This document shows positions 16,703 to 31,806 of a DNA stretch of 64,000 nt, one piece after another; positions within the stretch are counted from its first letter, which is position 1; every line of letters begins with the position of its first letter. A program made the position numbers and the translations under genes. Under the pieces are notes generated by a model. The model did no database searches. It saw only the letters and a program-made list of their open reading frames with translations, and had not been told where the DNA came from. This DNA comes from an uncultured virus (IMG/VR IMGVR_UViG_3300036398_005783) (lineage: Duplodnaviria > Heunggongvirae > Uroviricota > Caudoviricetes), in IMG/VR virus record IMGVR_UViG_3300036398_005783; one strand, 5' to 3'.

Positions 16703-16893
16703 TGTATTTCCTATATGATTGAAAGTAATAATCAGTTAAATACTTGAATTTGTGATAATTTTACCCAATCGGGTATAATTAACGAATACATCTTTTGATT
16801 TATACCCCATCGGGTATTGGGTGATTATGAGAATATTGCTACATAAAAATGATATTCTGACAATTAAACTTGATATTTGTAGTTAGGATTTAG

Positions 16894-17030
16894 TAGTCAT
16901 GATAGGATTTGAACCTATATGGTGATTGAGAACTGACTTACTCTGCTATTATTCTGAACTTTGGGTTCAAGGAGTTACACCTTTCAGCAAAATCACCGCA
17001 GCTGCGTCTAACCATTTCCGCCACATGACT
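16894..17030 (-). ncRNA. tRNA-like element 1 (137 nt, no anticodon arm)
   Basis: AGTCATG/CATGACT-A acceptor, D arm GGCGGAAATGGTTAGACGC, T arm ATAGG-TTCAAAT-CCTAT; long insert closed by GGTGATT/AATCACC. Confidence 0.75.
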
Positions 17031-17092
17031 AACCATCGTTTTTATATATTTAGTAATTTGTCTTTTACCCATTATATCTTCAAAAGAATAAA

Positions 17093-17821
17093 TTAATCTC
17101 TAAACCAATCAATCATTTTATCGTAGAGGGCACCGCCATGATTGATTATGCCATAGTCTTTGCTTTCTTGGAAAGAATCATTGGACATTTCTTCCATTTG
17201 CTTTTGAAAGGCATTCATTTCTTTATTCTTTGGTTGAATGTTAGACTGTCTTTGATGGAGTAAATCCCACCATTCTTCAGAATCTATGTAGCTATAATCT
17301 GGTTCTATTCGGATTTCTCCAGCATCATAACCCAAAAGAATTTTGGCAGGGAGTCCATAATACCATATCTTTCTACCGATTTCTTTTTGGGGGTTGACAA
17401 AATCAAACGGATGTTCTGACATAGTTTCAATTTTAACTTGAGCGGTAGCTAAAGCACCAGAGAGTTCTCTATGATGAAATTTATAGACTTCTTTACCATT
17501 TGCGGTGATTGTGCAAATACCTCCGTTACTGATTCTATATTCATCCCACTTATGCTTAGTAGAATTGAATTGCTGATATTGCACACCCCAGCAGACTCTA
17601 TGGACTCCTTTATCAATATAAGGGACTAATCCTTGTTGACCAGGATAATCCAACCACCACTGGTCAGGGCAACCATTGTCCTTTCCTAATTCGTGTTCGT
17701 AACCTTCTATTGAATAGACATTATGGATTTCATTTCTGATTTGGATTTGGAATATCTCTCTGACATTATCCTCTCCAAACTTTTTCTTTGCTTCTTCAAG
17801 CGTGAAATATTTTTCTGTCAT
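17093..17821 (-). CDS. hypothetical protein
   Basis: 242-aa ORF directly downstream of tRNA-like element 2. Confidence 0.8.
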   Translation of the reverse strand: MTEKYFTLEEAKKKFGEDNVREIFQIQIRNEIHNVYSIEGYEHELGKDNGCPDQWWLDYPGQQGLVPYIDKGVHRVCWGVQYQQFNSTKHKWDEYRISNGGICTITANGKEVYKFHHRELSGALATAQVKIETMSEHPFDFVNPQKEIGRKIWYYGLPAKILLGYDAGEIRIEPDYSYIDSEEWWDLLHQRQSNIQPKNKEMNAFQKQMEEMSNDSFQESKDYGIINHGGALYDKMIDWFRD

Positions 17822-17844
17822 AACTCTTCTTTATTATTAATTTG

Positions 17845-17956
17845 TAGTCAGGACAGGACTCGAACCTGCATTTGTGGAACACCATTTCCAACGTCTGAAT
17901 CGAACAGAACCAATCAACCCTCCACGGGCAGCGTCTACCAATTCCGCCACCTGACT
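17845..17956 (-). ncRNA. tRNA-like element 2 (112 nt)
   Basis: AGTCAGG/CCTGACT-ACA, D arm GGCGGAATTGGTAGACGC, T arm GCAGG-TTCGAGT-CCTGT; three-hairpin insert. Confidence 0.78.
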
Positions 17957-17994
17957 ATATTGTATTTGCGAAGTTTTATATCGTGTATATGGGA

Positions 17995-18475
17995 GTTATA
18001 AACAATTTATTAAAAAACCACATCTTCTGTAAAAATTAAACAACCAAAATCATCAATAACTTCATAAGGAAATACCGATTTCAAGATTGTATCAAAAACT
18101 ATGTAATCTTTACCGATTGATAAATCATGTTTTATACTATTTTCAACATTTGGATGAGATTTGTATTCATTTAACTTACATGTTTTTTTATAGAAAGAAA
18201 TCTTTTCACCACTTTCAAATGATAAATGAAACCCCTCAATGTCACCTAACTTATTCAAATCTTCTGAAATTATAGGAATGATTATGAAGTTATTATACCC
18301 ATTATTTTTTAGTATTTCTTTGATATTACTACCATTGAATTTACAACTTGAAATAAGTCTTTTAATTTTTTCCATATTTTAATAAACAGTTTATAACAAG
18401 GTATATGTGAAATACCTTATAAAGTTTCTACTAATTTTTAAGTTCTGTTGTAAGGTACTTCACATATACCCAACC
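17995..18475 (+). mobile_element. integron-like gene cassette (antisense ORF 18010-18375)
   Basis: Begins GTTATAAAC (17995); complementary GTTTATAAC at 18389-18397, then an attC-like hairpin. Confidence 0.65.
18010..18375 (-). CDS. hypothetical cassette protein
   Basis: ORF fills the cassette. Confidence 0.7.
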   Translation of the reverse strand: MEKIKRLISSCKFNGSNIKEILKNNGYNNFIIIPIISEDLNKLGDIEGFHLSFESGEKISFYKKTCKLNEYKSHPNVENSIKHDLSIGKDYIVFDTILKSVFPYEVIDDFGCLIFTEDVVF

Positions 18476-18485
18476 GTTATGTGCC
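18391..18485 (+). repeat. attC-like site
   Basis: TAAC-AA-GGTATATGTGAAATACCTTA ... TAAGGTACTTCACATATACC-CAACC-GTTA; very similar copy at 28154-28243. Confidence 0.75.
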
Positions 18486-18493
18486 ATTAAAGA

Positions 18494-18607
18494 CTACCTA
18501 TAATTCCAACCAACGGCTACACCACATAAAAAGACCCATAACCAAGCTAAGTTCCATTGCCAGTCTTTGTATTTAAACTCTCCGTGTTTTGTTTTAATTG
18601 TTACCAT
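18494..18607 (-). CDS. 37-aa hydrophobic cassette peptide
   Basis: MVTIKTKHGEFKYKDWQWNLAWLWVFLCGVAVGWNYR; lies between GTTATGTGCC (18476) and GGCACATAAC (18623). Confidence 0.5.
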   Translation of the reverse strand: MVTIKTKHGEFKYKDWQWNLAWLWVFLCGVAVGWNYR

Positions 18608-18625
18608 TTTGATAAGATTAACGGC

Positions 18626-18721
18626 ACATAACAAGGGCTTTGCGTAATAGCCATATCAAGTGTCGTGGTTAATTTTAAGTTTATACTAAGGGCTACTACG
18701 CAAAGCCCTGAACCGTTATGC
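18626..18721 (+). repeat. attC-like site
   Basis: ACATAAC-A-AGGGCTTTGCGTAATAGCC ... GGCTACTACGCAAAGCCCT-GAACC-GTTATG. Confidence 0.78.
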
Positions 18722-18904
18722 GCCATTTTGGGAAAACCACTCTTGAAACAACTTTTCCAGTTCTTCACAGTCATATACAGTCTCATCGCTTTCTCCCATA
18801 GTTACTGTCCAATTTTCACTTGAATGCCTTGTGTATCTGTTTAGTTCGCTTTCATCTGTTTCAACATAAAAAACGATTGACCTTGTTGCATTTGTAATTT
18901 TCAT
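18716..18904 (-). CDS. hypothetical protein
   Basis: Start MKITNATRS chosen because the longer start overlaps tRNA-like element 3; stop codon is the TTA of the attC core. Confidence 0.65.
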   Translation of the reverse strand: MKITNATRSIVFYVETDESELNRYTRHSSENWTVTMGESDETVYDCEELEKLFQEWFSQNGA

Positions 18905-18926
18905 AAGTTTCTCTTGTTGTTGTTTG

Positions 18927-19004
18927 TAGTCAGGGCAGGACTCGAACCTGATAAGCAACCGTTTTAATGGACTTGGAACCTTTCCTCATTACGCCCACCT
19001 GACT
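18927..19004 (-). ncRNA. tRNA-like element 3 (78 nt, divergent D arm)
   Basis: AGTCAGG/CCTGACT-ACA, T arm CAGG-TTCGAGT-CCTG; no canonical anticodon stem-loop. Confidence 0.6.
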
Positions 19005-19016
19005 GTTCTCTTTGCC

Positions 19017-19265
19017 TTATTTAAGAGTTTCGCATATAGGCTCGCATCGCACTAATTCGCTCTCCTTTGGGAGCTCTTCAGGAGCGTATTTCTCGCCAAC
19101 ACCAATCGGGTCTTTGGTGTATGCTACAAGTTCTGCCATCGCTTTTTCAATGCTCTCAAAGGCAAATGATTTGCATCCCACCCTGACAAGGCATCCTCGG
19201 TCAAAGAATGTGATTTCAAGATTCCAGCGCTTTAGTTCATTGATTTGTTCTCTTGTGTGTGTCAT
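19017..19265 (-). CDS. hypothetical protein flanked by tRNA-like elements 3 and 4
   Basis: ORF. Confidence 0.7.
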   Translation of the reverse strand: MTHTREQINELKRWNLEITFFDRGCLVRVGCKSFAFESIEKAMAELVAYTKDPIGVGEKYAPEELPKESELVRCEPICETLK

Positions 19266-19302
19266 TTTTTTTTGGGTTTAGTTAATGATTTTTAATTGTT
19301 TG

Positions 19303-19473
19303 TAGTCAGGGCAGGACTCGAACCTGCATGCCATCTGTGGCTTTCTCTTCCATTTACGTTTGCAACCGTACCACAAGCGTTTTGCCACTCCTGTATAATG
19401 TCCGCTAACGTCTATCATACAATATTAACCTTGCGAGTTAATGTGTGCGTCTAACCAATTCCGCCACCTGACT
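19303..19473 (-). ncRNA. tRNA-like element 4 (171 nt, multi-hairpin insert)
   Basis: AGTCAGG/CCTGACT-ACA, D arm GGCGGAATTGGTTAGACGC, T arm GCAGG-TTCGAGT-CCTGC; own TATCTTTG promoter about 50 nt upstream. Confidence 0.78.
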
Positions 19474-19557
19474 TCCAAGCATTTTTTATCTATGAAGTGG
19501 TTCGCTTTCCACTTATTATCTTTTGCAAAGATACTTATATTATTCTGATTTTCCAAA

Positions 19558-19815
19558 TTAATTATTTTTAGTATTAACAATCCATTCTATAATCGGATTA
19601 AAACTTTGAGCATTCCAATAGTTTCCATTAAAATCAAAATATTCTTTAGTGGGATTGTAGGTGTATCTGAAGTGAACTTCTCCATCAGTTCTATTATGTC
19701 TTTCAAGTTTTTGAACAGAGAAATCCATTTGCATCAGTTCATTATTAAATCCATCATAATCAAACCAACCGTGACTATTAGAAAACTCATTTAATAAATC
19801 CCCTTTGTTATCCAT
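19558..19815 (-). CDS. hypothetical protein
   Basis: ORF with TAAGGA RBS; degraded copy of its 3' end at about 30325-30400. Confidence 0.7.
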   Translation of the reverse strand: MDNKGDLLNEFSNSHGWFDYDGFNNELMQMDFSVQKLERHNRTDGEVHFRYTYNPTKEYFDFNGNYWNAQSFNPIIEWIVNTKNN

Positions 19816-19841
19816 AGAATCGTTTCCTTAATATATTTGAA

Positions 19842-20108
19842 TTACATATCAGAAACATCATTATCGTCTATCTTATGGAAATGGTCTATATTAAAACAAT
19901 CTATACAAGCATTGTAACCTTCCACATATCCTTTCTTGAATTCATCTTCTTTGCATACTTCATATCCTCTCTTATATGCCGATTTGTATTCAACATCCTT
20001 AACTGCTTTATATCCTTGGTCATGTGCAATACCAATCATTTTTGAAACATGGTCGGTGTGATAGTATAACTCACCATCTATGGTTATTGCTCGTTTTGGT
20101 TTGTCCAT
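19842..20108 (-). CDS. GYxxG-repeat protein
   Basis: C-terminus near-identical to that of 23000-23845. Confidence 0.7.
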   Translation of the reverse strand: MDKPKRAITIDGELYYHTDHVSKMIGIAHDQGYKAVKDVEYKSAYKRGYEVCKEDEFKKGYVEGYNACIDCFNIDHFHKIDDNDVSDM

Positions 20109-20172
20109 ATTAAATTATTCCTCTTATTTCTATTGGGTCTGTCCAGATAACCTTATCAGGATCTACCGATGG

Positions 20173-20898
20173 TTATTCAACGCCGTCTGTGTCTCTACCG
20201 TATTTTAAGATGCGTTCTGCTACTTCTCTACAATCCTTATATCCAGAAACATATCCCGTAATATACCTTGATCCAAATATAGTTTCGTTCCAAGTTTTTG
20301 AACCCATGTCTTTGGTTGATGGCACAGCAAAATGTTCTACCATTTTTCTCAGTTTTACTTCTCTACAATCATCGTAACCTTCTTTATATCCCTTATGGAA
20401 TGCTTCTTCTATATGAGCAAGGTATTCACCTGGTATTTCTTTATTACTGATACCGTCATCTTTACATTCTTTACAGTAATCATCGTAATCATGGTCATAA
20501 TCAACAGTACTCTGATTGGGATATTCGGGAACGGGCACAGCAATGTAGGGTGAACAGTTTTTCTTACCTGCTTCATATCCTATGCGATACCATTGCTCTT
20601 GTGTACGGACAATGTCACTATCAGTATAACCGTTAGCAACGCCTTCAACTTGGGCTAACTTATATCCTTCAGATTCACCTTCTTTATATCCTTTCATATA
20701 TTCATTACTATTTTGGGCATCAGGTCGTGTCAATCCACTATTAGCCATTGATTTACCATCATCAACACCCATTTCATACCAAGCATTGTGTACCTTTGCC
20801 ATTTTTAATGATGAATAGTATGTAACTCCATTTACTTCAACCATCAGAGGTAAATCTTCTTTTGATATACCCCATTGATTAAATTTCCAATCTTTCAT
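20173..20898 (-). CDS. GYxxG-repeat protein
   Basis: Repeated GYKEG/GYDD; N-terminus similar to 23000-23845. Confidence 0.75.
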   Translation of the reverse strand: MKDWKFNQWGISKEDLPLMVEVNGVTYYSSLKMAKVHNAWYEMGVDDGKSMANSGLTRPDAQNSNEYMKGYKEGESEGYKLAQVEGVANGYTDSDIVRTQEQWYRIGYEAGKKNCSPYIAVPVPEYPNQSTVDYDHDYDDYCKECKDDGISNKEIPGEYLAHIEEAFHKGYKEGYDDCREVKLRKMVEHFAVPSTKDMGSKTWNETIFGSRYITGYVSGYKDCREVAERILKYGRDTDGVE

Positions 20899-20915
20899 AG
20901 TATTTGTTCCTTATC

Positions 20916-21125
20916 TTAAAAGTTTCTTAAATGTTCATTAATGCCGTGTAGTCTTTCTTTTATATAATCTACCGATTCTTTTACGCAAATGGCATCATTA
21001 CCGATATTAAGTTTGGTTAAATCGCCATAGTCAATGGCGTTAATAGTTTGCATATAGTCAATCTTAGCTATATTAATCGATATTTTATTTTCATCCATAT
21101 CGGTTAGATCAATAAAGAATATCAT
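20916..21125 (-). CDS. hypothetical protein (FlbD-like small beta protein)
   Basis: FIDLT...ISIN...I...TKL.IG...VKESVDYI pattern. Confidence 0.5.
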   Translation of the reverse strand: MIFFIDLTDMDENKISINIAKIDYMQTINAIDYGDLTKLNIGNDAICVKESVDYIKERLHGINEHLRNF

Positions 21126-21255
21126 TTTTGGTTATTCCTTATAATTAGAATTTGTTGCATCTTGTTTTCTATAAATGTCAAAAAGTGTCTTCATAATATA
21201 GCATAATTTCTACTTATGTTTAGTAGAAAATAATCTTTTTCAGCACCTAATACTT

Positions 21256-21543
21256 TTAATCTACTACTTCATAAGTAGTTTCAAATATATCAGGTTTGCA
21301 AGGATAATACTCTCCTTGAACACCTTTGATAATCCAATCACCAATTGATGCAATATGTTCGCCTTCTAATGTTTTTATGATTAAGCCACCATTGACTTTA
21401 TTCCAGTCAATATAAAAATTGACTCCTGTGGCTTGAATATACTCTTCATCTTCTCCACCTAAAAAATTGAACATTTCTCTGTGGTTATCTCCAGTCCATT
21501 GCACGGCTTCAATCTCTATTGGTTTTTTTCTGAATTTTGGCAT
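21256..21543 (-). CDS. PGDYG-like phage protein
   Basis: KFRKKPIEIEAVQW...TLEG...GDWIIKGVQGEYYPCKPDIF..TY. Confidence 0.8.
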   Translation of the reverse strand: MPKFRKKPIEIEAVQWTGDNHREMFNFLGGEDEEYIQATGVNFYIDWNKVNGGLIIKTLEGEHIASIGDWIIKGVQGEYYPCKPDIFETTYEVVD

Positions 21544-21582
21544 AGTTTTATTTGGTTAGTTAATTAATTACATAAAATAAAA

Positions 21583-21879
21583 TTAATCCTTTATCTCTTC
21601 CTCAAATACATCTCGTTCTTCTTTAGTATCAAAATATCTCAATACAACTCCTTCTGCTTTACAAATAGCCTCGAAATCGCATATATAACTTGCATCCATC
21701 TCGTCTAAAAGCATTGATCCGTTTTGATAAATGCTATCACAAACTTTACAAGTGCAGGATGTTTTATTTCTCCACACTATTTTACCTATGCGATCATAAA
21801 ACCACTTCTCTCTTTCTGTTATTTCTCTTTTCGTCATTGTATTTCTAAATAGGTAGACAATTGGCTTCAACTTTTTCAT
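21583..21879 (-). CDS. hypothetical protein (start uncertain)
   Basis: ORF with CxCxxC. Confidence 0.6.
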   Translation of the reverse strand: MKKLKPIVYLFRNTMTKREITEREKWFYDRIGKIVWRNKTSCTCKVCDSIYQNGSMLLDEMDASYICDFEAICKAEGVVLRYFDTKEERDVFEEEIKD

Positions 21880-22372
21880 AAGCTATTACATATCCGCCGC
21901 TTCTTTTTTCATCTTTATGGATTAAGTAACAAGCTCTATGTTCTGAAAAGCCAGTGACATAAACAATGTCGCCTTTCTTTTCTTTAGGATTCAAGGGTAT
22001 TTCTATAATTAGTTTCTGTCCTTTTTGAAATTTAGGCTGAGGATTATGTGCAGAAACCCATGTTTCAATAGTTTTTTCTAAAATACGATATTTCTTAAAA
22101 TCAAAATCATCTAAAAACTGAATGAAAGAAGTATCAATATCATAAATGGCTTTGCTTCCAAATCCTTCTAAATATTTAGCAATTTCATATCCGTTATCGT
22201 GAGGAGATATTTTTGAAACATCATGGATAACATCTTCTAAATCACTATCACTCCATCCGTTTTTAATAATTTCTTCAGCAATAGATTTGTAAAATTCCTG
22301 CTTTTGTTTTTCAGTAATTTTTGTCGGCCTAACTTTTGTAAAGGTTTCCGCATCTGAAAATAATTTTTCCAT
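21845..22372 (-). CDS. hypothetical protein
   Basis: 175-aa ORF. Confidence 0.75.
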   Translation of the reverse strand: MEKLFSDAETFTKVRPTKITEKQKQEFYKSIAEEIIKNGWSDSDLEDVIHDVSKISPHDNGYEIAKYLEGFGSKAIYDIDTSFIQFLDDFDFKKYRILEKTIETWVSAHNPQPKFQKGQKLIIEIPLNPKEKKGDIVYVTGFSEHRACYLIHKDEKRSGGYVIAYEKVEANCLPI

Positions 22373-22384
22373 TTTTATATTCGT

Positions 22385-22822
22385 TTAATTATTAATAATG
22401 TTCTTTTTATCAATACTAACCGTAATATATGTTGGGATATATTCAAGAGTAATATCTTCCAACTTGATTTTAGAAACATCTTCGATAGAGTTATTTTTAG
22501 CAATTTCAATAAACTTATTCATAATGTCCAAGTCTGTATCACCATCGTTTATTTCAACAACTGCTCGAAAATCATTATAGCCAACTAATGCACTCATAAC
22601 TAAACAATCTTCTGAAAGTGTTTTTAATATAGAAATAACCTCAACCCATTGATTGCTATCTATATTCATCGATTCGTCAGTTTGACCAATATCAGCAAAG
22701 TTCTTGCATAATTCCGCTAAACCAATAGCTCCCATTATATTTGCTTTCTTTGATAATAACCCATTATATGGGTGATGGTCTGATGATTTTATCATCAACT
22801 CTACTATTTCATTCGTTTCCAT
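22385..22822 (-). CDS. hypothetical protein
   Basis: ORF downstream of tRNA-like element 5. Confidence 0.7.
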   Translation of the reverse strand: METNEIVELMIKSSDHHPYNGLLSKKANIMGAIGLAELCKNFADIGQTDESMNIDSNQWVEVISILKTLSEDCLVMSALVGYNDFRAVVEINDGDTDLDIMNKFIEIAKNNSIEDVSKIKLEDITLEYIPTYITVSIDKKNIINN

Positions 22823-22857
22823 AACTTGTAATCCTATGGGTATATTAATTTAAAGTG

Positions 22858-22937
22858 TAGTCAGGAACATGATTTGAACCTGTATCTCTTGTGAGCATAT
22901 TTATGGAGGCGTATGTTACCATTATCACCACCTGACT
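22858..22937 (-). ncRNA. tRNA-like element 5 (80 nt, degenerate)
   Basis: AGTCAGG/CCTGACT-ACA, D-like GTGATAATGGTAACAT, T loop GGTTCAAATC; TATATTTG promoter element just upstream. Confidence 0.55.
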
Positions 22938-22999
22938 TTTCTTTGTTAATTGCAAATATACATTAGTTTTGTATTAAATCATAGCATTATTTATTATTA

Positions 23000-23845
23000 T
23001 TACATATCAGAAACATCATTATCATCTATTTTATGCTCATAATCTATATTAAAACAATCTATACAAGCATTGTAACCTTCAACATATCCTCTCTTAAATT
23101 CTTCGTCTTTGCATACTTCATATCCTCGTTTGAATGCTTCTTCAAGTGGTTTTTTTCTGCTTATCGGTTTAACTATTTCAGCAACCATTCTATCCATACC
23201 TTGTTTATATCCTCTGAAGAATGCCTCGCAAAGTTCGTTTTTATCTTCTTTCAATTTCTCTTTCGATTCTACTACAACATCTGAATTATCGGTGGAATCT
23301 TTAGAATTGCTTAATTTACCATCAGCAAAACCTTCCTTATATCCTTCATCATTTCCTTCTACCTTACCATTAGCAAAACCTTGTTCATACCATTCTTTTT
23401 TCAGTTCATACAATTCTTCATCATCATAATAATGGTCATTTGGTTGAGGTTCTTTCTTAGCGGCTTTCCATCCAATATCATGACCTTCTGAAAAACCTCT
23501 TCCGTAACCTTTTCCAAAACCATCGCATTCGCCTTGTTTATATCCTTCATCATAACCTTTCTTCTTACCAGCAAAATATCCATCTTGGTATGCGGTATAT
23601 CCATCACCATATTTCAGGGCATCATTGATGATACTTTCATATCTATCAGGTGATGATGGTTCTGAAATTACTTCATTTCTGCATAGTTCCAATCCTACTT
23701 TGGATAATTCCATATTTATTTTGGATAGGTTTTGTGATGAATCAAATAGTTTTGATGAGAAATATTCTATACCATTTATCGTAATTGATAATGGTAACTC
23801 TTCATTTGATTTTGAGTTGAAATCTAATGTCATTGTATTTTCCAT
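23000..23845 (-). CDS. GYxxG-repeat protein
   Basis: Long GYxxG arrays. Confidence 0.78.
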   Translation of the reverse strand: MENTMTLDFNSKSNEELPLSITINGIEYFSSKLFDSSQNLSKINMELSKVGLELCRNEVISEPSSPDRYESIINDALKYGDGYTAYQDGYFAGKKKGYDEGYKQGECDGFGKGYGRGFSEGHDIGWKAAKKEPQPNDHYYDDEELYELKKEWYEQGFANGKVEGNDEGYKEGFADGKLSNSKDSTDNSDVVVESKEKLKEDKNELCEAFFRGYKQGMDRMVAEIVKPISRKKPLEEAFKRGYEVCKDEEFKRGYVEGYNACIDCFNIDYEHKIDDNDVSDM

Positions 23846-23880
23846 GTTTGTAAGATTTAATAGTGAATATAGAGATAATA

Positions 23881-24192
23881 TTACGATTCAAATTTCAATT
23901 TAAGTTTTTCATATTTCTTTCGTTCTCTTTCTTCTTTTTTCTGAATAGCCAATAATTTCTTTTGTTCATCAGCTATTCTCTCATTGTATTCATCATCATT
24001 TTCTAATCTCATTCCCATAACAATAAGTTCAGCAAATTCATTATAATATTCCATTTCAAGATGGAGGTTTGTCCAACCTTCTCGCTCTAACTTATCTTTT
24101 TGTTCTAAAAGAATTTGAGCCGCTTTTTCAAAAGAAGTCAGAAACATATCTGTATTAATGTTTACTTGACTTAAAACTCGCTTTCTTTCCAT
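23881..24192 (-). CDS. hypothetical protein
   Basis: ORF preceded by the half-site leader repeat. Confidence 0.7.
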   Translation of the reverse strand: MERKRVLSQVNINTDMFLTSFEKAAQILLEQKDKLEREGWTNLHLEMEYYNEFAELIVMGMRLENDDEYNERIADEQKKLLAIQKKEERERKKYEKLKLKFES

Positions 24193-24201
24193 AACTAAAT
24201 T

Positions 24202-24270
24202 CCATCGGTAACTAAAATAATAATTGTAATTGTGTATTGACGAAGGTTTATATCGTGTATCAGAGAGTTA
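24202..24270 (+). repeat. about 68-bp half-site/leader repeat ending in G-TTA
   Basis: CCATCGGTAACTAAAATAA...GTATTGACGAAG(G/T)TTTATATCGTGTAT-N5-AGTTA; copies at about 27499, 28541 and 29051; partial copies at 17958, 27256 and 29520. Confidence 0.85.
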
Positions 24271-24279
24271 GTGGCAATT

Positions 24280-24564
24280 TTACTCACCACTCCGAAAGAC
24301 ATCAGCGTTGAAATATTTAGCCAAGTTTTCAACCTCTTGCTTAAATTCTTCTTCATCACGCATTGTCTTGCATAATAACATCTCTATCACTCCATCAACT
24401 TTTCTGCTCAAACAATAAGCAAGAGCATCTTTGTCGTATGTATCAACGCCCATTGCATAATACGGTTGTTTAATGGTAGCTTTCTCCAACAATGATTTGT
24501 CGAAGAAAAAACTGCCACTAACATCGGTTTGGCAAGATTGGGGCTTTTGTGGTAAATTGTTCAT
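24280..24564 (-). CDS. hypothetical cassette protein
   Basis: ATG lies in the attC loop; first about 18 aa encoded by the attC arm. Confidence 0.7.
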   Translation of the reverse strand: MNNLPQKPQSCQTDVSGSFFFDKSLLEKATIKQPYYAMGVDTYDKDALAYCLSRKVDGVIEMLLCKTMRDEEEFKQEVENLAKYFNADVFRSGE

Positions 24565-24654
24565 TTGTATTTCTATTTAAAATTTGTACTAAAATTGAGC
24601 GATTGTACTTCTAAGTCCCCAACCTCGCCAAGCCGAGAACCGTTAGCACCAATA

Positions 24655-24897
24655 CTAAGAAAGGTACTCCGCTTCAATATACTTTATCATATCAGGCTGG
24701 CATTTGTCCGTATCAGGCAAGCCATTTACAGCAAATCTATGTCTGTATCTCAACCCCCTAATAGTGTGATAGCTTTCAAACAGTTCACCATCTTCAATCC
24801 AAAAATGGCTATGCCTTCTATCTCGTGAAAGAAGTACTGGTGCTAACACATTATTTGCGTCAGTGGGGTTTTCGTTTTTCAAATTATCTTTCTGCAT
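24655..24897 (-). CDS. hypothetical cassette protein
   Basis: ATG lies in the attC loop. Confidence 0.65.
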   Translation of the reverse strand: MQKDNLKNENPTDANNVLAPVLLSRDRRHSHFWIEDGELFESYHTIRGLRYRHRFAVNGLPDTDKCQPDMIKYIEAEYLS

Positions 24898-24968
24898 ATT
24901 ATTAAAGTTTTGTTTTTAAAATGAAGTTCAGTGGCTTAAATCCCCACCGAACGCAAATAATCGGCACG

Positions 24969-25682
24969 TTACCCGCAATTTTGGGGCGACACGTTCCAAA
25001 TCAAATTTTGTTCTTCGACATTTATACAGAACTGCCCAGTTGGAAAATCTGAACGAACATATTTTGCCAAAAAATCAACTTTTCCTTTTCGCTCAACACG
25101 ATAAACAATTCCTTCGGGGTTTTCTTCGCTCTCAAAGCCTTTTGTTTTCAAATTTAAAATTGGCAATAGTTCATTTACTGTTATTGGTTCGCCTTCACTC
25201 AGTAATCTTGGCATAGTTAAGCCGTATTTGCCTGTAATTTGTCGCAAATCAGTTTGTAATAGTCTTTCATTTTTCTGTGTAAAATAATCGAAAAATAAAA
25301 TAGGGTCGCTTTCAATTTTGTATTTAAGTCCATGAGCTTGTAAAAGCCATTCGCCTGTTATCCTTTCTCCTTCGCCAAGCATTTCAGCAAATAGTTTTTC
25401 ATTACTGTAAACACAATCACTAAAATAGTGGTGTTGTTTATATTGGCTTGTTTTTGCTTCATAACCCGAACGAGTTAAAGCAAATATTTTACCATTCATT
25501 TTACCTATGCCAATATTTGAACCATCGTATTTTTCATACGCAAATATGGTATCGTGTTTATCTCGTTTTTTCTCGGTCAATATTCGCTCCATGCCTTTTT
25601 CAACATAGTAATCGCCTTCACCTAATTTAGAGTTTGAAAGGTGTGGAATTGAACCGTAATTTTTTCTTTCTGTTGGTTTCAT
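24969..25682 (-). CDS. RNA ligase family (Rnl2-like) nucleotidyltransferase
   Basis: Motif I EKYDGSN, ITGEW, FFD, EGIVYR, LAKYV. Confidence 0.8.
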   Translation of the reverse strand: MKPTERKNYGSIPHLSNSKLGEGDYYVEKGMERILTEKKRDKHDTIFAYEKYDGSNIGIGKMNGKIFALTRSGYEAKTSQYKQHHYFSDCVYSNEKLFAEMLGEGERITGEWLLQAHGLKYKIESDPILFFDYFTQKNERLLQTDLRQITGKYGLTMPRLLSEGEPITVNELLPILNLKTKGFESEENPEGIVYRVERKGKVDFLAKYVRSDFPTGQFCINVEEQNLIWNVSPQNCG

Positions 25683-25802
25683 ATTTCAAATTTAATGATT
25701 AAAAAAAACTGCGGGTAACACGGGTTTGGCAAAATGGCTTTCCGACACACAAGCCAACGCACAAAAGCCACTTCGCCAATCCCGATACCGTTATAACCAA
25801 TG

Positions 25803-26060
25803 CTACCAAAGCATCGCATATTCATAACCGAAATTAGTTACACCATCAGTTATGATATATTTCCAATCTACCTCCATCCCTTCTAATTTGTCAGGAGTTG
25901 TATTGAATTTCGCTAACAAAAGCGAAACGGCTAATTGCTCATTTTTATCTTCCAGCTCATAAATTGGCAATCCTGATGAACCAGCACTAATAACAAACCA
26001 CTTACCATTAACTTTGCTAAGTTTGCCTTTCTTTGTTTCTGTTGTAATCTTTGGCATCAT
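25803..26060 (-). CDS. hypothetical protein
   Basis: ORF ending next to the core GTTATAACC. Confidence 0.6.
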   Translation of the reverse strand: MMPKITTETKKGKLSKVNGKWFVISAGSSGLPIYELEDKNEQLAVSLLLAKFNTTPDKLEGMEVDWKYIITDGVTNFGYEYAMLW

Positions 26061-26200
26061 AGTAATTCACCATAAAATTCTTTCATCAACCACTCCACCG
26101 CTGTTTGCTTACTCATGGTCGCCTCCATGAAGTTGGTTTTCTACATATCCAAAAAACAAAAGCTATCACAAATAATGTGAAAAAACATTTTACAATTGTT

Positions 26201-26482
26201 TCAATCATGGTCGCCTCCGTAGGTTGCTTGGTAATATACTTTGCATTCTGGTGTATTATATGGCTGTAAGAAATAAAGCTTACTAAAATTTTCACCTTCA
26301 TTGAAGGCATCCTCAATTTGCTTCTTTTCCATACGGAGCGCACTCTTTACTAACCATCTCAAACGGTTTACTTCAATCATATGGTAACGCTCAATAAATT
26401 CAGTGCCTCTATACAAATCATTCGTTTTACTGATTTCGTTGATATTGTATATCAACCACTCTACCGCCGTTTGCTTACTCAT
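26201..26482 (-). CDS. MSKQTAVEWL...YGGDH family protein
   Basis: Family motif. Confidence 0.75.
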   Translation of the reverse strand: MSKQTAVEWLIYNINEISKTNDLYRGTEFIERYHMIEVNRLRWLVKSALRMEKKQIEDAFNEGENFSKLYFLQPYNTPECKVYYQATYGGDHD

Positions 26483-26681
26483 CTATATACTCCTGATACG
26501 GGTCTCTTAAATTGCGAATCTTCACTTGTTCGCGTTCATGTATTGTCATTTTGGCTATGCTGTACATTTCTTTCTCAAAGCGATCATAAGCCCACTCTCT
26601 GACATCCTCTTCGGATAGCGAGTAGTCAAGGAGCACATCGTCTTCGTCAAATGCGCCCCAGACTTCGAAGGTGTTACTCAT
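26475..26681 (-). CDS. hypothetical acidic protein
   Basis: MSNTFEVWG start after GGAG; overlaps its neighbours. Confidence 0.65.
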   Translation of the reverse strand: MSNTFEVWGAFDEDDVLLDYSLSEEDVREWAYDRFEKEMYSIAKMTIHEREQVKIRNLRDPYQEYIDE

Positions 26682-26962
26682 AACATACTCCAAATACAAT
26701 AAAAACACCATACCCAAAAAGCAACGATTACAAAACCCAATAAGATAATTATATGCCATGATGCAATTTTGTAAAGCCAGTATTCTAATGTTGCGTTATC
26801 AGAAGCTTCAATGCCAAGTGCTTTCCAATAGGTTTCGTTAATTTGCTCTTTCTCAATTTGCTTAGCTTGGTGAATAAGTCCGTCCCATTTTGCATGCTCT
26901 TCGTAATTCCAATGGCTTGCAAAACACTTCTCCAACCACTCTACTGCGGTTTGCTTACTCAT
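26678..26962 (-). CDS. MSKQTAVEWL family protein with C-terminal hydrophobic segment
   Basis: First about 40 aa near-identical to 27053-27247; GGAGG RBS. Confidence 0.7.
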   Translation of the reverse strand: MSKQTAVEWLEKCFASHWNYEEHAKWDGLIHQAKQIEKEQINETYWKALGIEASDNATLEYWLYKIASWHIIILLGFVIVAFWVWCFYCIWSML

Positions 26963-27052
26963 GGTTGCCTCCATAAAAAATAAAATGCTCCAGTTATACA
27001 TATAACGAAAATACTAATCAATACAATGTCTACGATATTAAATACAGGTCGC

Positions 27053-27247
27053 TTACTCATGGTCGCCTCCGTAGGTTTTTGGTGGTATTGGTAAATGATG
27101 AGAGCCTGCAATATATGCCTTTGTAGTCTGCTCTTTTTCCATTTGCTTTGCTTGTTGGATTAGTCCATCCCATTTTGCATGCTCTTCGTAATTCCAATGG
27201 CTTGCAAAACACTTCTCTAACCACTCTACTGCGGTTTGCTTACTCAT
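27053..27247 (-). CDS. MSKQTAVEWL...YGGDHE family protein
   Basis: Family motif. Confidence 0.75.
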   Translation of the reverse strand: MSKQTAVEWLEKCFASHWNYEEHAKWDGLIQQAKQMEKEQTTKAYIAGSHHLPIPPKTYGGDHE

Positions 27248-27278
27248 AACTGAATCCTAACGGTAACTAAAATAATGC

Positions 27279-27491
27279 TTACATTACATACCAATTAAAT
27301 ACTATATTAACCATCAATGAAATCAATAACAATATGTTTCCCAATATGGCTTCACTCTTATAGATATAGTATGCTCCTGCAATGAGACATACCAAACCTG
27401 TAATAACATTCCACCCACTTGTTGCAGGCACAATATAGAATACGGTCAATGTTGCTATGGCCAATCCATAACCAATGAGTTTGTGTTTCAT
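27279..27491 (-). CDS. small membrane protein
   Basis: Three hydrophobic segments. Confidence 0.7.
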   Translation of the reverse strand: MKHKLIGYGLAIATLTVFYIVPATSGWNVITGLVCLIAGAYYIYKSEAILGNILLLISLMVNIVFNWYVM

Positions 27492-27598
27492 AAGGATTCC
27501 ATCGGTAACTAAAATAAAAATACTGTAATTTTGTATTGACGAAGTTTTATATCGTGTATAAGTGAGTTAGTTTCAATATCAAAAATTTTATGAGTTTA

Positions 27599-27808
27599 TT
27601 ATTTTACTTCACGTTTCTTAACAATGAAATGAAGACCACACCAACCACTTTTTCTCTCATCTTCTGTTGTCTGTTCCTTCCATAATTTATCAGCCTCTTT
27701 ATCTGCCATATCTTTATCAAAAAATAATAATCCTGTTGAATACTCTACATTAGGTGATTCAACTAAACCGAATCCCACTACTTTTACTATTTCAAATATA
27801 TTTTTCAT
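27599..27808 (-). CDS. hypothetical cassette protein
   Basis: Between core GTTAG (27566) and the attC-like site at 27841. Confidence 0.65.
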   Translation of the reverse strand: MKNIFEIVKVVGFGLVESPNVEYSTGLLFFDKDMADKEADKLWKEQTTEDERKSGWCGLHFIVKKREVK

Positions 27809-27840
27809 ATTTATATTTTTTTAATTAACTAAAAACCTAC

Positions 27841-27894
27841 ACATAACAAATGATAAACAACATTAAAACGATTGTTTATCATTGGACGTTATAA
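27841..27894 (+). repeat. short attC-like site
   Basis: ACATAAC-A-AATGATAAACAA ... TTGTTTATCATT-GGAC-GTTATAA. Confidence 0.7.
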
Positions 27895-27908
27895 ACAATA
27901 AAAAATTA

Positions 27909-28139
27909 TTATTGTTCTTTATCTACAATAAACCAATTTCCGTTAAAAATATTGAGTTCTCCAATAGCATTTTTTTGATTAATTATTTCATACCAGTTTG
28001 TTGGTAGGTTATCTATGATTTCAATCTCAAACTCAATATTTTCTTTATTGAGCATTAGTACTTTGTAGTTACCAAAATCGTAATTATACAATAGTGTTCC
28101 AATCTCCAATTGGTTTATTGTTTCTAATTTCTGCTTCAT
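27909..28139 (-). CDS. hypothetical cassette protein
   Basis: Bounded by GTTATAAACA (27888) and TGTTTATAAC (28151). Confidence 0.65.
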   Translation of the reverse strand: MKQKLETINQLEIGTLLYNYDFGNYKVLMLNKENIEFEIEIIDNLPTNWYEIINQKNAIGELNIFNGNWFIVDKEQ

Positions 28140-28244
28140 AATTTTTTACATGTTTATAACAAGGTATATGTGAAATACCTTATAAAGTTATACTAATAAT
28201 TTAAGTTTTGTGGTGAGGTACTTCACAAATAAACGAGTTGTGTG

Positions 28245-28472
28245 TCATTTTAGACGAGCATGCCATTTCAATCTATCATCACTACCAATTTCAACCAATT
28301 CAAATTTAACCGTTCTGTTTTCTAAGATAGCCCAAGGATGAAAATTAAAACTCAAAAGGTCTATTGGTAATTCACCATTTCTATTACCAATTAAATTTGA
28401 ATTATCACATTTTACAACCCAATATGGTGTTGTGTTGAAATTGGTTGATTGAATTAAATTTCCTGTTTCCAT
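28245..28472 (-). CDS. hypothetical cassette protein
   Basis: Bounded by GTTGTGTGT (28237) and ATACATAAC (28491), an imperfect match. Confidence 0.65.
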   Translation of the reverse strand: METGNLIQSTNFNTTPYWVVKCDNSNLIGNRNGELPIDLLSFNFHPWAILENRTVKFELVEIGSDDRLKWHARLK

Positions 28473-28618
28473 ATTTTATTTAATTTACATATACATAACA
28501 ACAAATATAAGGAATTATTCGCTAAGATCAAAGCACTTTTCCATCGGTAACTAAAATAAAAATTGTAATTGTGTATTGACGAAGGTTTATATCGTGTATA
28601 AGTGAGTTATATGAAATG

Positions 28619-29041
28619 TTAATTTTTAGAGTGCCAGTCCGACTTTGAAACCCAACACACTTCTGTATTCATCATCAACCAACCTCTTGATATTTTACCA
28701 TTTTCATCAAATCTACTCTTTATTTTACAAATTAGATATGAAGAATCTGTAACCCACCCTATCCAAGCTTCATCATAACCTTCAAGTTTAACCTCGTCAC
28801 CTTTTTTAAGTTCTGTACCATTGTGGTATTGGTCGAAACATACACCACCTTCATCTTGTGATGCCATCCCACCTTTCCAATACTCAAACAAGAGTTCTTC
28901 TTCCATTTCCTTTGCTTGTTGAAATATACCCTTTGAATTAAATAGTGTACTTTTACTTTCTATATCTTCAATCAGTTTGTAATAATATAGTGAATTTGAT
29001 ATTTGTCCAAATAACCAATCCACTGCGGTTTGCTTACGCAT
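28619..29041 (-). CDS. MRKQTAVDWL family fusion protein
   Basis: Family N-terminus with an unrelated C-terminus. Confidence 0.7.
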   Translation of the reverse strand: MRKQTAVDWLFGQISNSLYYYKLIEDIESKSTLFNSKGIFQQAKEMEEELLFEYWKGGMASQDEGGVCFDQYHNGTELKKGDEVKLEGYDEAWIGWVTDSSYLICKIKSRFDENGKISRGWLMMNTEVCWVSKSDWHSKN

Positions 29042-29163
29042 AACAAAACTCCAACGGTAACTAAAATAAAAATTGTAATTGTGTATTGACGAAATTTTAT
29101 ATCGTGTATATGGGAGTTAGGTTCAATTAAACAAAATTTATGAGTTAATCAAAAAACCATATA

Positions 29164-29837: not shown

Positions 29838-30029
29838 TTATTTACCCACTATTCCAAATTTAGAAAGGATATATTGTAGTTTAGATAGTCCAGTCAATAA
29901 GTCTTCTTGTTTGGGAATTTCTTTATCCCACATATTAACACCTTCAACTATTACTGACTCAGCATCAGCACAATCAAAACAAACACCAACTCTCAATTCT
30001 TTTTCTCGGTTACAACATTTGCATTTCAT
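29838..30029 (-). CDS. small Zn-finger-like protein
   Basis: CxCC...CFDC; AAGGAG RBS. Confidence 0.65.
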   Translation of the reverse strand: MKCKCCNREKELRVGVCFDCADAESVIVEGVNMWDKEIPKQEDLLTGLSKLQYILSKFGIVGK

Positions 30030-30116
30030 AGTTTAACTCCTTTGTTTCATATAATTATATCCAATTATGACTTTTGAATAAATAACTACAATTAGTTTTT
30101 AAAGATAATATATCTG

Positions 30117-30609: not shown

Positions 30610-31806
30610 ATGAAATACATTAAACTTTTTGAGAATTTTGATGCTGAAAGAGAGATGTCAGGTATACTTGGCTATGATGTTAAACTATTTCATCAAGTTA
30701 ATAAACTTATATTTTTAAGTCCTGAACAACTTCAAGAGTGGTTTGAAGAAGAAATAGAAAAGGATGAACCTAATTTGGATTTGATTAAAATTCTTGAAAC
30801 TCAGCACGGTATAGAATTTGATTTGGGATATAAGGACTTACATTGGGCGGCATGGGATAATAAAGTAGGATTAGTGAAATATTGGCTTAATAAGGGAGTA
30901 GATAAGGATGCTCAAGGTAATAATTTAAGAACTCCTTTGCATCAGGCGGCAATCAATGATAACGAAGCAGTTGCTAAACTCCTTATAGATGCTGGGGCAA
31001 ATAAGGATGCTCAAGATGGATTTTTACAAACTCCTTTACATTGGGCAGCACAGTATGATAAAAGAGCAGTTGCTAAACTCCTTATAGATGCTGGGGCAAG
31101 AACGGATATTAGGGATATGAGTGGGGAAACGGCTTTAGATTTAGCAAAGAAGAAAGGAGAGGTTATTTCTATGCTTTTTGAGGATAGGATTATTGATAGA
31201 ATGGGAGCTAAATACTCAACCTTTGAAATTGGTAAAATACAAAACAGACCATTTCTCAATAAAAATCAGATAGAGAGTTTATTGAAAACTACACTTAAAA
31301 CTAAATGTATTATTGGAATACGAGGATTTTATTTATCAAAGGGTAAAACGCCATTAAAGAATTTTTATTCTAAGAATGATAGGGGAATATACGATGATGC
31401 TATATTTATTTATGATGGTGTGAATATAGTAGGATTTAATGCAAATACTGATCCAGGTATGAGTGGTTTTAATCCTGATTTAAATACACAAAAGGGGTAT
31501 GCTACCTTATCAACTGGAACTTGGAAATACAAGATTGGATTACATAAAGGATATGAGGCATTAGTTCAGCAAGATGATGTTAAGGTCTATAGGGATTCTT
31601 ATGATGATGTTCCAAGTATGACTGAAACTGGAATGTTTGGTATAAATATTCACAGGGGTGGAGATACAACAGTATCATCAAAGGGTTGTCAGACTATACG
31701 ACCTGATCAATATGATGAATTTATGTCAAAGGTTAAATCTCTTTGGTCTGGTAATGAAATTGTTACTTATATGCTGATTGAAAATAAAGGTAATTCTTTA
31801 GCATAA
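30610..31806 (+). CDS. tagged ankyrin module fused to a putative L,D-transpeptidase-fold (His/Cys) cell-wall hydrolase
   Basis: MKYIKLFENF tag, TPLH repeats, C-terminal GIRG...TDPG...GINIHRG...SKGCQ. Confidence 0.7.
   Translation: MKYIKLFENFDAEREMSGILGYDVKLFHQVNKLIFLSPEQLQEWFEEEIEKDEPNLDLIKILETQHGIEFDLGYKDLHWAAWDNKVGLVKYWLNKGVDKDAQGNNLRTPLHQAAINDNEAVAKLLIDAGANKDAQDGFLQTPLHWAAQYDKRAVAKLLIDAGARTDIRDMSGETALDLAKKKGEVISMLFEDRIIDRMGAKYSTFEIGKIQNRPFLNKNQIESLLKTTLKTKCIIGIRGFYLSKGKTPLKNFYSKNDRGIYDDAIFIYDGVNIVGFNANTDPGMSGFNPDLNTQKGYATLSTGTWKYKIGLHKGYEALVQQDDVKVYRDSYDDVPSMTETGMFGINIHRGGDTTVSSKGCQTIRPDQYDEFMSKVKSLWSGNEIVTYMLIENKGNSLA

Follow-up and report, generated by a model that had tools for sequence, protein, structure and literature searches.

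Does this phage carry single genes that move as cassettes in the manner of an integron, and if so, by means of which enzyme? The question comes from a 64-kb stretch of DNA from a large, uncultured lake-water phage of the Caudoviricetes, analysed at its full length and referred to here as the window. The initial annotation had described six units in it that open with GTT plus a private word and close with the reverse complement of that word plus AAC, each unit being followed by a hairpin. A string check found every one of the six pairs to be exact, and this observation is confirmed; the reading of the units as mobile single-gene elements of an integron-like cassette system is supported. The units, including a seventh, are as follows.

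17995..18397, minus strand: unit 1, ends GTTATAAAC / GTTTATAAC (9 nt; pair 17995/18389-18397), with an ORF at 18010-18375 (121 aa) that matched no family
18476..18632, minus strand: unit 2 (157 nt), ends GTTATGTGCC / GGCACATAAC (10 nt; pair 18476/18623-18632), with a doubtful 46-aa TTG ORF as its sole content
24267..24522, minus strand: unit with ends GTTAGTGGCA / TGCCACTAAC (10 nt; pair 24267/24513-24522); its ORF, 24280-24564 (94 aa), begins within the loop of the preceding hairpin
24642..24847, minus strand: unit with ends GTTAGCACCA / TGGTGCTAAC (10 nt; pair 24642/24838-24847); its ORF, 24655-24897 (80 aa), likewise begins within the loop of the site that comes next
24968..25719, minus strand: RNA-ligase cassette, ends GTTACCCGCA / TGCGGGTAAC (10 nt; pair 24968/25710-25719); its ORF, 24969-25682 (237 aa), matches PF09414 (4.3e-18), and the TAAC core includes its TAA stop codon
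27568..27847, minus strand: unit with ends unpaired beyond GTTA/TAAC, ORF 27599-27808 (69 aa)
27888..28160, minus strand: unit with ends GTTATAAACA / TGTTTATAAC (10 nt; pair 27888/28151-28160), ORF 27909-28139 (76 aa)

Complementary words are in themselves common, with 17 pairs of at least 10 nt lying within 3 kb of each other across the window, only five of which are the pairs described. The strength of the observation therefore comes from the exact register in which the pairs sit and not from any rarity of such words. In gene orientation, six of the seven hairpin sites have bases after GTTA that find their match, in exact register, immediately ahead of the following TAAC core (TAAC being the G|TTA core of the initial annotation, which was written on the plus strand). 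The single miss in the window is the unit at 27568-27847, which is either decayed or not a cassette.

A structure scan located the six hairpins where they had been described and, in addition, a decayed copy at 28157-28240. The same seven places were recovered by a custom covariance model (CM) made from 30 foreign sites and two window sites and run on the window with filters off, all seven on the minus strand at 25 to 110 bits. Two of the sites register on the plus strand, at 13.6-13.7 bits only, and nothing else in the 64 kb reached E<0.01, while an Rfam search of the window returned two tRNAs and nothing else. The hairpins are imperfect, range from 48 to about 127 nt, are framed by (T/C)AAC...GTT(A/G) inverted cores, and cluster as two, three and two.

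18394..18479, minus strand: hairpin site TAAC...GTTA, 50.2 bits (E 6e-9), outside the training set
18629..18718, minus strand: hairpin site, 56 bits (plus strand: 13.6 bits), with nearly complete pairing of its two outer boxes
24519..24645, minus strand: hairpin site of the 127-nt class, 109.9 bits (training member)
24844..24971, minus strand: hairpin site of the 128-nt class, 85.4 bits (training member)
25716..25793, minus strand: hairpin site before the ligase gene, 41.6 bits; covariation is seen among its relatives from other loci
27844..27891, minus strand: short hairpin site of 48 nt with loop TCGTTTTAATG, 27.7 bits (E 6e-4)
28157..28240, minus strand: decayed hairpin site, a copy of 18394-18479, 25 bits (E 0.0026)

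The initial annotation had noted that the arms differ in sequence between sites, which they do, yet all sites form one covarying family. Loci bearing the ligase gene hold 54 CM sites, and in the 54-site alignment, which was fitted to the model, 85.3% of cells pair, compared with 61.0% after shuffling and 36-49% when partners are slid. Changes on both sides of a pair were counted in 316 cells of that alignment, against 121.5±9 in shuffles, none of 500 of which reached the observed count; RNAalifold predicted no structure on a plain MAFFT alignment. It had also been remarked that the arms show no obvious extrahelical base; strand marks exist nonetheless, in the form of two G·T pairs, each fixed in 53 of 54 sites, and of a spacer bulge on one side; the sites are not symmetric. 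When the orientation of 90 sites was set by spacer length alone, G·T outnumbered A·C by 94 to 29. The minus strand gives the more stable fold at six of the seven window sites.

Each array in the window terminates at a promoter-like repeat of 70 nt, which is present in five copies.

17957..17998, minus strand: truncated copy with its TAAC core at 17995-17998 (GTTA on the plus strand); it passes directly into a tRNA-like gene
24201..24270, minus strand: repeat composed of TAAC, 6 nt, ATACACGATATAAA..., a promoter-like A/T stretch and CCGATGGA, then the start of gene 23881-24192
27498..27571, minus strand: repeat, then gene 27279-27491
28540..28610, minus strand: repeat without an attached hairpin site
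29047..29119, minus strand: repeat before gene 28619-29041; the relative L005 keeps only its gene-proximal half

Where the window has this repeat, arrays of related phages have a recombinase gene. The absence of an integrase from the window, as first annotated, was borne out, with no match to PF00589 among its 97 ORFs and no recombinase relic recognisable by tblastn; the records of the closest relatives, 124 kb and 200 kb long, contain no recombinase gene either. Linkage of the sites to a recombinase was observed in other phages and in one flavobacterium. Many related phages encode an Xer-like recombinase of 266-271 aa themselves at the array end: across 80 IMG/VR loci, there are 232 CM matches, all on the strand of the recombinase gene and nearly all just upstream of it. 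The gene is preceded, 45-60 nt before its start codon, by TAAC and an A/T-rich ATATATA-type word (judged by eye, 13 of the 14 loci printed). These arrays share with the window the site family, the chain rule described below and the gene polarity, and differ in what stands at their end. An Aequorivita genome has a six-site chain directly behind an Xer-like recombinase, a XerD-like recombinase is present beside the same site family in G006:C61, and a Flavobacteriaceae array contains that family at CM scores of 31-76 bits. The enzyme named by the initial annotation, IntI, was rejected as the identity of this partner, since the linked recombinases score 151-205 bits on TIGR02249, below the NCBI integron-integrase cut-off of 265.

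End words match within a unit and not across one hairpin in six of the seven window units, as first noted, and the rule extends to the recombinase-linked phage arrays, where 152 of 224 neighbouring sites agree at six or more of the seven positions; the corresponding counts are 12 of 306 within one site and about 8 of 224 when partners are shuffled. The end words covary with the gene. Exact own-pair ends of at least 9 nt occur in 9 of 78 ligase loci, in seven different words, and only 37 of 6006 non-self pairs match.

Exchange at the G|TT core had been proposed, and blocks shared between unrelated loci do border at TAAC cores. Such blocks start at the TAAC core before the hairpin in 83 cases, at the GTTA core in 7 and elsewhere in 177, with only about 0.7% of bases being near a landmark; they end at a TAAC core in 36 cases and just past the next GTTA in 20. 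In L003 and L010, the hairpin and ligase are common from TAAC to TAAC between unrelated flanks, and one ligase end word is preceded in each of six loci by a different upstream word. The RNA-ligase and 76-aa cassettes recur elsewhere with different neighbours and with breakpoints at cores; for the latter, the match of L227 to the window runs core to core from 28243 to 27887. The 76-aa protein is 95-96% identical in two IMG/VR contigs in which its neighbours differ, a sign of recent movement. The window and L226 have in common the hairpin behind the 76-aa gene, and this, together with the 20 block ends past GTTA, makes it ambiguous in some cases which hairpin is a cassette's own.

The close relatives L004 and L005 are without the three array-holding segments. 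The one junction followed closely falls within the repeat and a paralogous gene rather than at a GTTA/TAAC core, so homologous recombination may contribute more to the gain and loss of arrays in this lineage. Among the assembled contigs, which were the material covered, neither a circular junction nor an insertion event appeared. As separate observations, one core-to-core joint was encountered, 18480 to 27572, with a short side of 26 letters, which may be another genome's; contigs from lake water branch at hairpins; and the summed depth over 27850-28283 is several-fold above that of most other bins.

The window very probably holds three small arrays of mobile cassettes, part of an integron-like site-specific recombination system that is typical of Bacteroidota-type phages, with no recombinase here; the system is widespread and barely described. 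Read in gene orientation, a cassette would comprise TAA|C, a 4-6-nt spacer, the hairpin, GTTA with a private word y, the gene, and y' with TAA. The gene-coding strand would fold, y'TAAC would pair with GTTAy once the cassette is circular, and an Xer-like tyrosine recombinase would cut within the TAAC core. Cassettes would be excised as circles and would enter either a different site or the putative docking end of an array; that end carries the recombinase gene in full versions of the system and, in the window, the five-copy promoter-like repeat starting with TAAC. The enzyme would be supplied from elsewhere in the roughly 0.4-Mb phage genome, by a co-infecting phage or by the host, and a host or distant recombinase may act on this phage, as had been suggested. 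Xer recombinases that use a folded DNA single strand, or short paired sites flanking single genes, are known from the folded attP of the CTX phage and from Acinetobacter pdif modules. Those elements use host chromosome-dimer resolvases at dif-like 28-bp sites, whereas the present arrays have hairpins of 48-127 nt, private end words and a dedicated recombinase gene at array ends.

The arrays might instead be dead relics, cassettes acquired long ago by a recombinase-bearing ancestor and by now fixed genes, with sites that persist by inertia or have been co-opted for expression. This is unlikely: it agrees with the lack of a recombinase in the window and in the relatives' records, with the one decayed site and the one unit with unmatched ends, and with closest relatives that gain or lose whole segments and not single cassettes, but perfect pairing of 9-10 nt is kept in six of seven units and five sites reach CM scores of 41-110 bits. 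The near-identity of the 76-aa cassette in two viral contigs with different neighbours also speaks against it, as do the branching of the lake-water contigs and the raised summed depth mentioned above.

It is quite unlikely that the hairpins work at the RNA level within polycistronic phage transcripts, whether as processing sites, as attenuators or in translational control, and that gene shuffling merely results from homologous recombination among similar hairpins and promoter repeats. In T4-type phages, cassettes of a promoter plus a stem-loop are shuffled by homologous recombination between similar elements. The better-folding strand in the window is the mRNA strand, the fixed mismatches are of the G·U type, two ORFs begin inside hairpin loops, the array-end repeat resembles a promoter and leader before the next gene, and the large differences from L004 and L005 trace to recombination in the repeat and paralog. 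Gene orientation argues otherwise. All cassette ORFs in the window occupy the site-forward strand and have the hairpin upstream; they had first been called antisense to the sites as then written, and phage arrays generally show this orientation (188 of 194 inter-site ORFs). In one flavobacterial genome, the genes of five chromosomal arrays are oriented the other way, and there it is the strand opposite to the genes that folds, whereas in phages the folding strand is the gene strand. The conserved polarity therefore does not follow transcription, and because the folding strand flips relative to the genes between phages and flavobacterium, the sites are better explained by a function in DNA than by one in RNA. 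An RNA-level role would also leave unexplained why unit ends pair with each other and not across the hairpin, why a tyrosine recombinase gene abuts the arrays in 80 viral loci, and why block borders fall at a 4-nt core.

Very improbable is an origin of the units as relics of hairpin-guided single-strand transposons of the IS200/IS605 or REP/RAYT type, which an HUH (Y1) transposase moves by cutting next to a short target word. Strand-specific hairpins, a fixed 4-nt word TAAC at every border and units that abut as if each inserts 3' of the target word all resemble IS608. However, none of the 97 window ORFs matches an HUH or Y1 transposase in Pfam, the gene recurring beside such arrays is that of a tyrosine recombinase, each unit has one hairpin and not two subterminal ones, and pairing of private end words is not required by HUH transposition chemistry.

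For a mobile cassette system, the nearest published counterparts, as far as the excerpted texts go, are phage CALINs (Qi 2023, PMC9892861) and rAID-1 (Ross 2019, 10.1101/471110). As in integrons and CALINs, single-gene cassettes are parted by imperfect hairpin sites with inverted AAC/GTT cores, the two ends of a cassette pair, exchange is at the core, and one strand is marked for folding. CALIN arrays can likewise be without a recombinase, and provided that the present sites count as attC-type, the window holds CALINs, that is, clusters of at least two sites with no integrase. In contrast to integrons, the recombinase here is short, Xer-like and below the integron-integrase cut-off. The genes sit on the strand that folds and each is preceded by its hairpin, an arrangement inverse to that of integron cassettes; a spacer occurs on one side only, and fixed G·T pairs mark the strand.

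One published site bears directly on the enzyme. P12002L_attC1, called by HattCI, was, in the excerpted results of that study, the only one of six sites without recombinants with IntI1 (Qi 2023, PMC9892861). It corresponds to NC_028924 (Polaribacter phage P12002L) 30008-30056, minus strand, and scores only 17.7 bits with the CM (E 0.083). Around it lie seven CM matches at E<0.01, six of them between minus-strand genes, DNA methyltransferases included, and P12002L_attC1 is placed in the site family of the window. Its lack of IntI1 recombinants argues against IntI and leaves the family as candidate recombination sites.

In gut Bacteroidales, rAID-1 links a XerD-family recombinase to rows of small, low-GC genes whose intergenic sequences are repetitive, and its authors, in the text excerpted, call it reminiscent of integrons (10.1101/471110). 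The flavobacterial array of like build carries the window's site family. Compared by description, rAID-1 is chromosomal, recombinase-headed and co-directional in its genes and stocks immunity genes, whereas the window is phage DNA with no recombinase and with the opposite polarity of genes to sites.

Tentatively, and with rather less confidence than the cassette reading itself, these arrays may be the Bacteroidota phages' own gene-capture platform, with a cassette pool apart from that of their hosts, genes and recombinase flipped relative to the site and, in this jumbo phage, a docking end uncoupled from the recombinase and fused to the repeat. If this is true, the phages would share the site family and the Xer-like enzyme class with their hosts, and cassettes would be read with phage transcription. 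The folding strand would then be the gene strand, possibly the lagging-strand template, and one enzyme supplied in trans could load cassettes at several places in the genome.

The six units that the initial annotation had delimited by a GTTA+x start and a complementary x'+TAAC end are exact in all six cases. Complementary pairs of at least 10 nt within 3 kb number 17 in the window, so word length alone is not rare, and it is register, not word length, that gives the observation its weight. In gene orientation, each junction runs x'TAAC, a spacer of 4-6 nt, arm-loop-arm, 0-2 nt and GTTAy, and y is matched exactly by the bases preceding the next TAAC core in 6/7 cases (the chain rule). A covariance model (CM), the check that had been proposed for these hairpins, was trained on 32 aligned sites of 117-130 nt (two from the window and 30 from elsewhere), with its structure set by hand from column-pair counts; RNAalifold had predicted no pairs on a MAFFT alignment of the sites, probably because of register shifts. 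With filters off, exactly seven sites were found by the CM in the whole 64 kb. All lie on the minus strand, with scores of 25.0 to 109.9 bits, and five had no part in the training; just two of them also registered on the plus strand, at 13.6-13.7 bits. Many sites cluster at the modal length, about 125-127 nt. Those of the short class, 47-49 nt, have the loop TCGTTTTAATG in common, which occurs at 27860-27870 of the window, at 30008-30056 and 30909-30955 of Polaribacter phage P12002L, and just upstream of the recombinase in two further loci, L163 and L216. In the latter two, a tiny GTTA-y / loop / y'-TAAC element with TCGTTTTAATG directly precedes a TAAC + ATATATA word before the recombinase gene. 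In several 127-nt sites (window 24519-24645 and 24844-24971; 10712-10838 of L003, a ligase locus) the hairpin loop contains the start codon of the following gene, so that the right arm and GTTA core are coding and read DV(S/G)GS in two homologous proteins.

Over 54 CM matches, 85.3% of cells were paired (column shuffles, 61.0%; slid partners, 36-49%), and changes on both sides were seen in 316 cells against 121.5±9 in shuffles (0/500 reached 316). The alignment had been fitted to the model, which biases these counts in its favour. The sites form a single family whose structure is under selection. Each of two G·T pairs is fixed in 53/54 sites, one between the G following TAAC and the T preceding GTTA, the other inside an A-G-T word of the arm. 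When 90 sites were oriented by spacer length alone and scored in a strand-neutral way, G·T pairs numbered 94 and mirror A·C pairs 29. With DNA parameters the minus strand gave the more stable fold in 6/7 window sites, and in the folded window sites the long spacer becomes a one-sided bulge. The arms had been described as having no obvious extrahelical base; the G·T excess, minus-strand stability and one-sided bulge mean that the sites do carry strand marks, of a kind other than the extrahelical bases first looked for.

Relatives of the RNA ligase (PF09414) encoded in one window cassette were gathered from IMG/VR, metagenomes and genomes. Among the 78 ligase loci with full flanks, nine have exact own-pair ends of at least 9 nt, in seven different words, while non-self pairings matched in 37/6006 cases, mostly between close kin. 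The TAA stop of the ligase gene is part of the core, and its last two codons covary with the word preceding the gene. Homology between loci L003 and L010 begins at the TAAC in front of the upstream hairpin and stops at the TAAC behind the ligase gene. Six different upstream neighbours are seen for a hairpin-plus-ligase module that carries CCCGCA as its end word, and the arms of this module show compensatory changes. At 2183-3100 of another locus, L002, the ligase cassette is flanked by the outer words GCGCCCAAC and GTTGGGCGC, which pair with each other, a layout as would be expected if it had inserted into a single complete site standing alone. The cassette with a 76-aa gene was found again in two viral contigs at 95-96% protein identity; the match of L227 to the window covers 28243 to 27887 and runs between cores, and L226 shares the 76-aa gene and the hairpin behind it. 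Within the window, units 1 (17995..18397) and 6 (27888..28160) have the same hairpin and end words around unrelated ORFs. Over all loci, distinct homology blocks start at a TAAC core in 83 cases, at a GTTA core in 7 and elsewhere in 177, and end at TAAC in 36, just past GTTA in 20 and elsewhere in 209, with only about 0.7% of bases near a landmark. From these borders and the shared segments the usual module is TAAC-spacer-hairpin-GTTAy-gene-y'TAAC. Its border corresponds to G|TTA on the plus strand, in agreement with the G|TT crossover first proposed, with a minority of borders at the other core.

The statement that the window holds no integrase was borne out: none of its 97 ORFs of at least 60 aa is a tyrosine, serine or HUH recombinase, and tblastn found no recombinase relic (best E 0.23). 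The five viral records G001-G005 likewise contain no PF00589 match. Among 41 long ORFs of ligase loci, Pfam detected tyrosine recombinases in L013, L025 and L038, and these were rejected as none adjoins an array. At 4116-6267 of L013, a high-coverage metagenome contig, the start of an IS91-type Y2 transposase is overlapped by a Xer-like recombinase (PF00589 4e-36), 3.3 kb from the ligase cassette. Across five Bacteroidota genomes, one of 20 recombinase neighbourhoods had an array of at least three sites. In an Aequorivita genome, which also holds a ligase relative, a six-site array obeying the chain rule comes directly after a recombinase of 376 aa. The protein matches PF00589 at 8.7e-40, carries SAM-like domains, and scores 232 bits with NF040815 (cut-off 220) and 205 bits with the integron-integrase model TIGR02249 (cut-off 265); 13/29 CM matches in the genome lie within 5 kb of a PF00589 match. 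As a single query the bacterial recombinase found no viral relative, and an alignment of 14 homologues led to 538 relative-encoding stretches in IMG/VR. The 80 loci kept contain 232 CM matches at E ≤ 0.01, all on the recombinase strand and nearly all upstream of the gene, and 152/224 neighbouring sites in these arrays obey the chain rule at 6 or 7 of 7 positions. Five of the IMG/VR recombinases are 266-271 aa long and score 151-171 bits with TIGR02249 (cut-off 265); loci with such a phage Xer-like enzyme include L163 and L178.

The cassette ORFs had been noted as antisense to the sites, and this polarity is real and general to the phage arrays. The site-forward strand carries the genes in the window, in P12002L, in a phage-like contig of the Aequorivita bin and in the IMG/VR recombinase-linked arrays (188/194 inter-site ORFs). 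In integrons, by contrast, the genes are on the strand opposite to the site-forward one, and five chromosomal arrays in the Aequorivita genome follow this integron pattern. Relative to site polarity, phage and chromosomal arrays alike have the recombinase at the same end; genes and recombinase are flipped together between the two. Since this conserved polarity is independent of the direction of transcription, the sites fit a DNA-level role better than an RNA-level one.

A repeat with five copies marks the end of every window array. It is laid out as TAAC, 6 nt and ATACACGATATAAA..., followed by A/T-rich sequence resembling a promoter, then CCGATGGA and the start of the next gene; as a pattern it had 0 matches in IMG/VR. 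The corresponding end in recombinase-bearing phages is TAAC and an ATATATA-type word, then the recombinase gene (13/14 loci, by eye). The likeness of this word to the TAAC-proximal part of the repeat is weak and A/T-rich and may serve as a lead, as may a docking role for the repeat, which is not a finding. The idea that the repeat is a sigma-70-type promoter on the plus strand, directed into the arrays, was dropped, since the genes are all on the minus strand (throughout 17-30 kb) and L005, a locus of a close relative, retains only the gene-adjacent half of the repeat. L005 and a second such locus, L004, lack three segments and are otherwise 86-98% identical to the window.

Window segments absent from L004 and L005
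29013-23938, 5.1 kb, first segment
22962-21576, 1.4 kb, middle segment
19840-17031, 2.8 kb, third segment

The first and third carry all the cassette arrays, and the middle one carries none. In the whole records of the relatives, G004 and G005, the CM had no match among the 150/159 and 150/223 first-look candidates scored. Where cassette gain or loss at G|TT had been the proposed comparison, the borders shared by L003/L010 and by L227 and the window run core to core, and the junction traced for L004/L005 lies in the repeat and a paralogous gene. Small paralogous genes starting MSKQTAVEWL or MRKQTAVDWL occupy 26201-27247 and 28619-29041, closely packed and with overlapping frames; where the window has 5 kb of extra DNA, two of them are recombined in L005 into a sequence that contains a stop.

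The window belongs to a large phage whose DNA is A/T-rich, at about 31% G+C. The stretch occurs in many lake-water metagenome runs, 17 of which contain at least 77% of sampled words. These are assembled contigs, in which circles, starts and rare variants are invisible. The contigs break at hairpins and at the array-end repeat. Summed depth over 27850-28283 is several-fold above most other bins, comparable only to a tRNA-like stretch (17434-18301), and one contig links 18480 with 27572, both at GTTA cores, with a short side of only 26 letters. Breaks, depth and joint fit, without proving, cassettes that sit in several contexts.

tRNA-like genes of the window
16893-17030, minus strand, tRNA-like gene
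17844-17956, minus strand, tRNA-like gene
~18925-19005, minus strand, tRNA-like gene
~19300-19475, minus strand, tRNA-like gene
~22850-22945, minus strand, tRNA-like gene

All have acceptor and T arms in common around oversized middles, and are missed by plain ARAGORN and Rfam; with introns allowed, ARAGORN called tRNA-Tyr(gta) and tRNA-Ser(cga), whose introns measure 42 and 20 nt, respectively. Their ends recur in lake-water contigs with the 61-69-nt middle replaced by 27-35 different letters. Rfam at gathering score found nothing but two tRNAs in the window, megablast of 17000-29000 against the phage collection gave no match, and a 242-aa gene (17093-17821) had no relatives in IMG/VR. Closest to the window are two contigs in IMG/VR, 124 and 200 kb long (CheckV completeness 30% and 52%); judged by relatives, the complete phage genome would measure about 0.4 Mb. 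Cassette ORFs other than the ligase were unnamed by Pfam and PHROGs. The window encodes about ten DNA methyltransferases, an ArdA-like protein and a SAM synthetase. Ankyrin-repeat proteins are unusually dense over 1-64000 (at least 14 ORFs, one of 1343 aa), and a CAP-domain protein and a tyrosinase-domain fragment are also encoded.

Integrons are the textbook device for single-gene capture, with the IntI integrase as defining enzyme. Folded sites, cassette ends private to each unit and a 4-nt core for exchange make up an integron logic that is common to both systems; unlike integrons, the present one has a simpler Xer-like recombinase, cassettes turned round and a home in lytic-type phages. 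The integron-like reading of the initial annotation is supported, at the level of sequence, by the site family, the core-bordered modules, the chain rule and the recombinase linkage elsewhere. The window arrays appear to belong, without a recombinase of their own, to a cassette system that operates in integron fashion and is non-integron by enzyme and gene polarity. Qi et al. (2023, PMC9892861) report integrase-less attC clusters in virulent phages including P12002L, and that P12002L_attC1 was the sole site among six not recombined by IntI1. That site is 30008-30056 of NC_028924, which reaches just 17.7 bits (E 0.083) with the CM; the cassettes of P12002L lie at 29.2-32.3 kb and 37.3-39.3 kb. 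In Bacteroidales, arrays with integron-like repeats headed by a XerD-like recombinase are described by Ross et al. (2019, 10.1101/471110). As far as the portions of the literature retrieved extend, the phage system as a whole is not described, the partial accounts being isolated sites (Qi 2023) and a bacterial cousin (Ross 2019). The RNA ligase in the window and DNA methyltransferases in relatives suggest counter-defence cargo. Integron searches keyed to IntI would overlook the system. If the sites are active, it would be a general route for Bacteroidota phages to trade small accessory genes, and the hyperplastic regions of such phages would also be explained.
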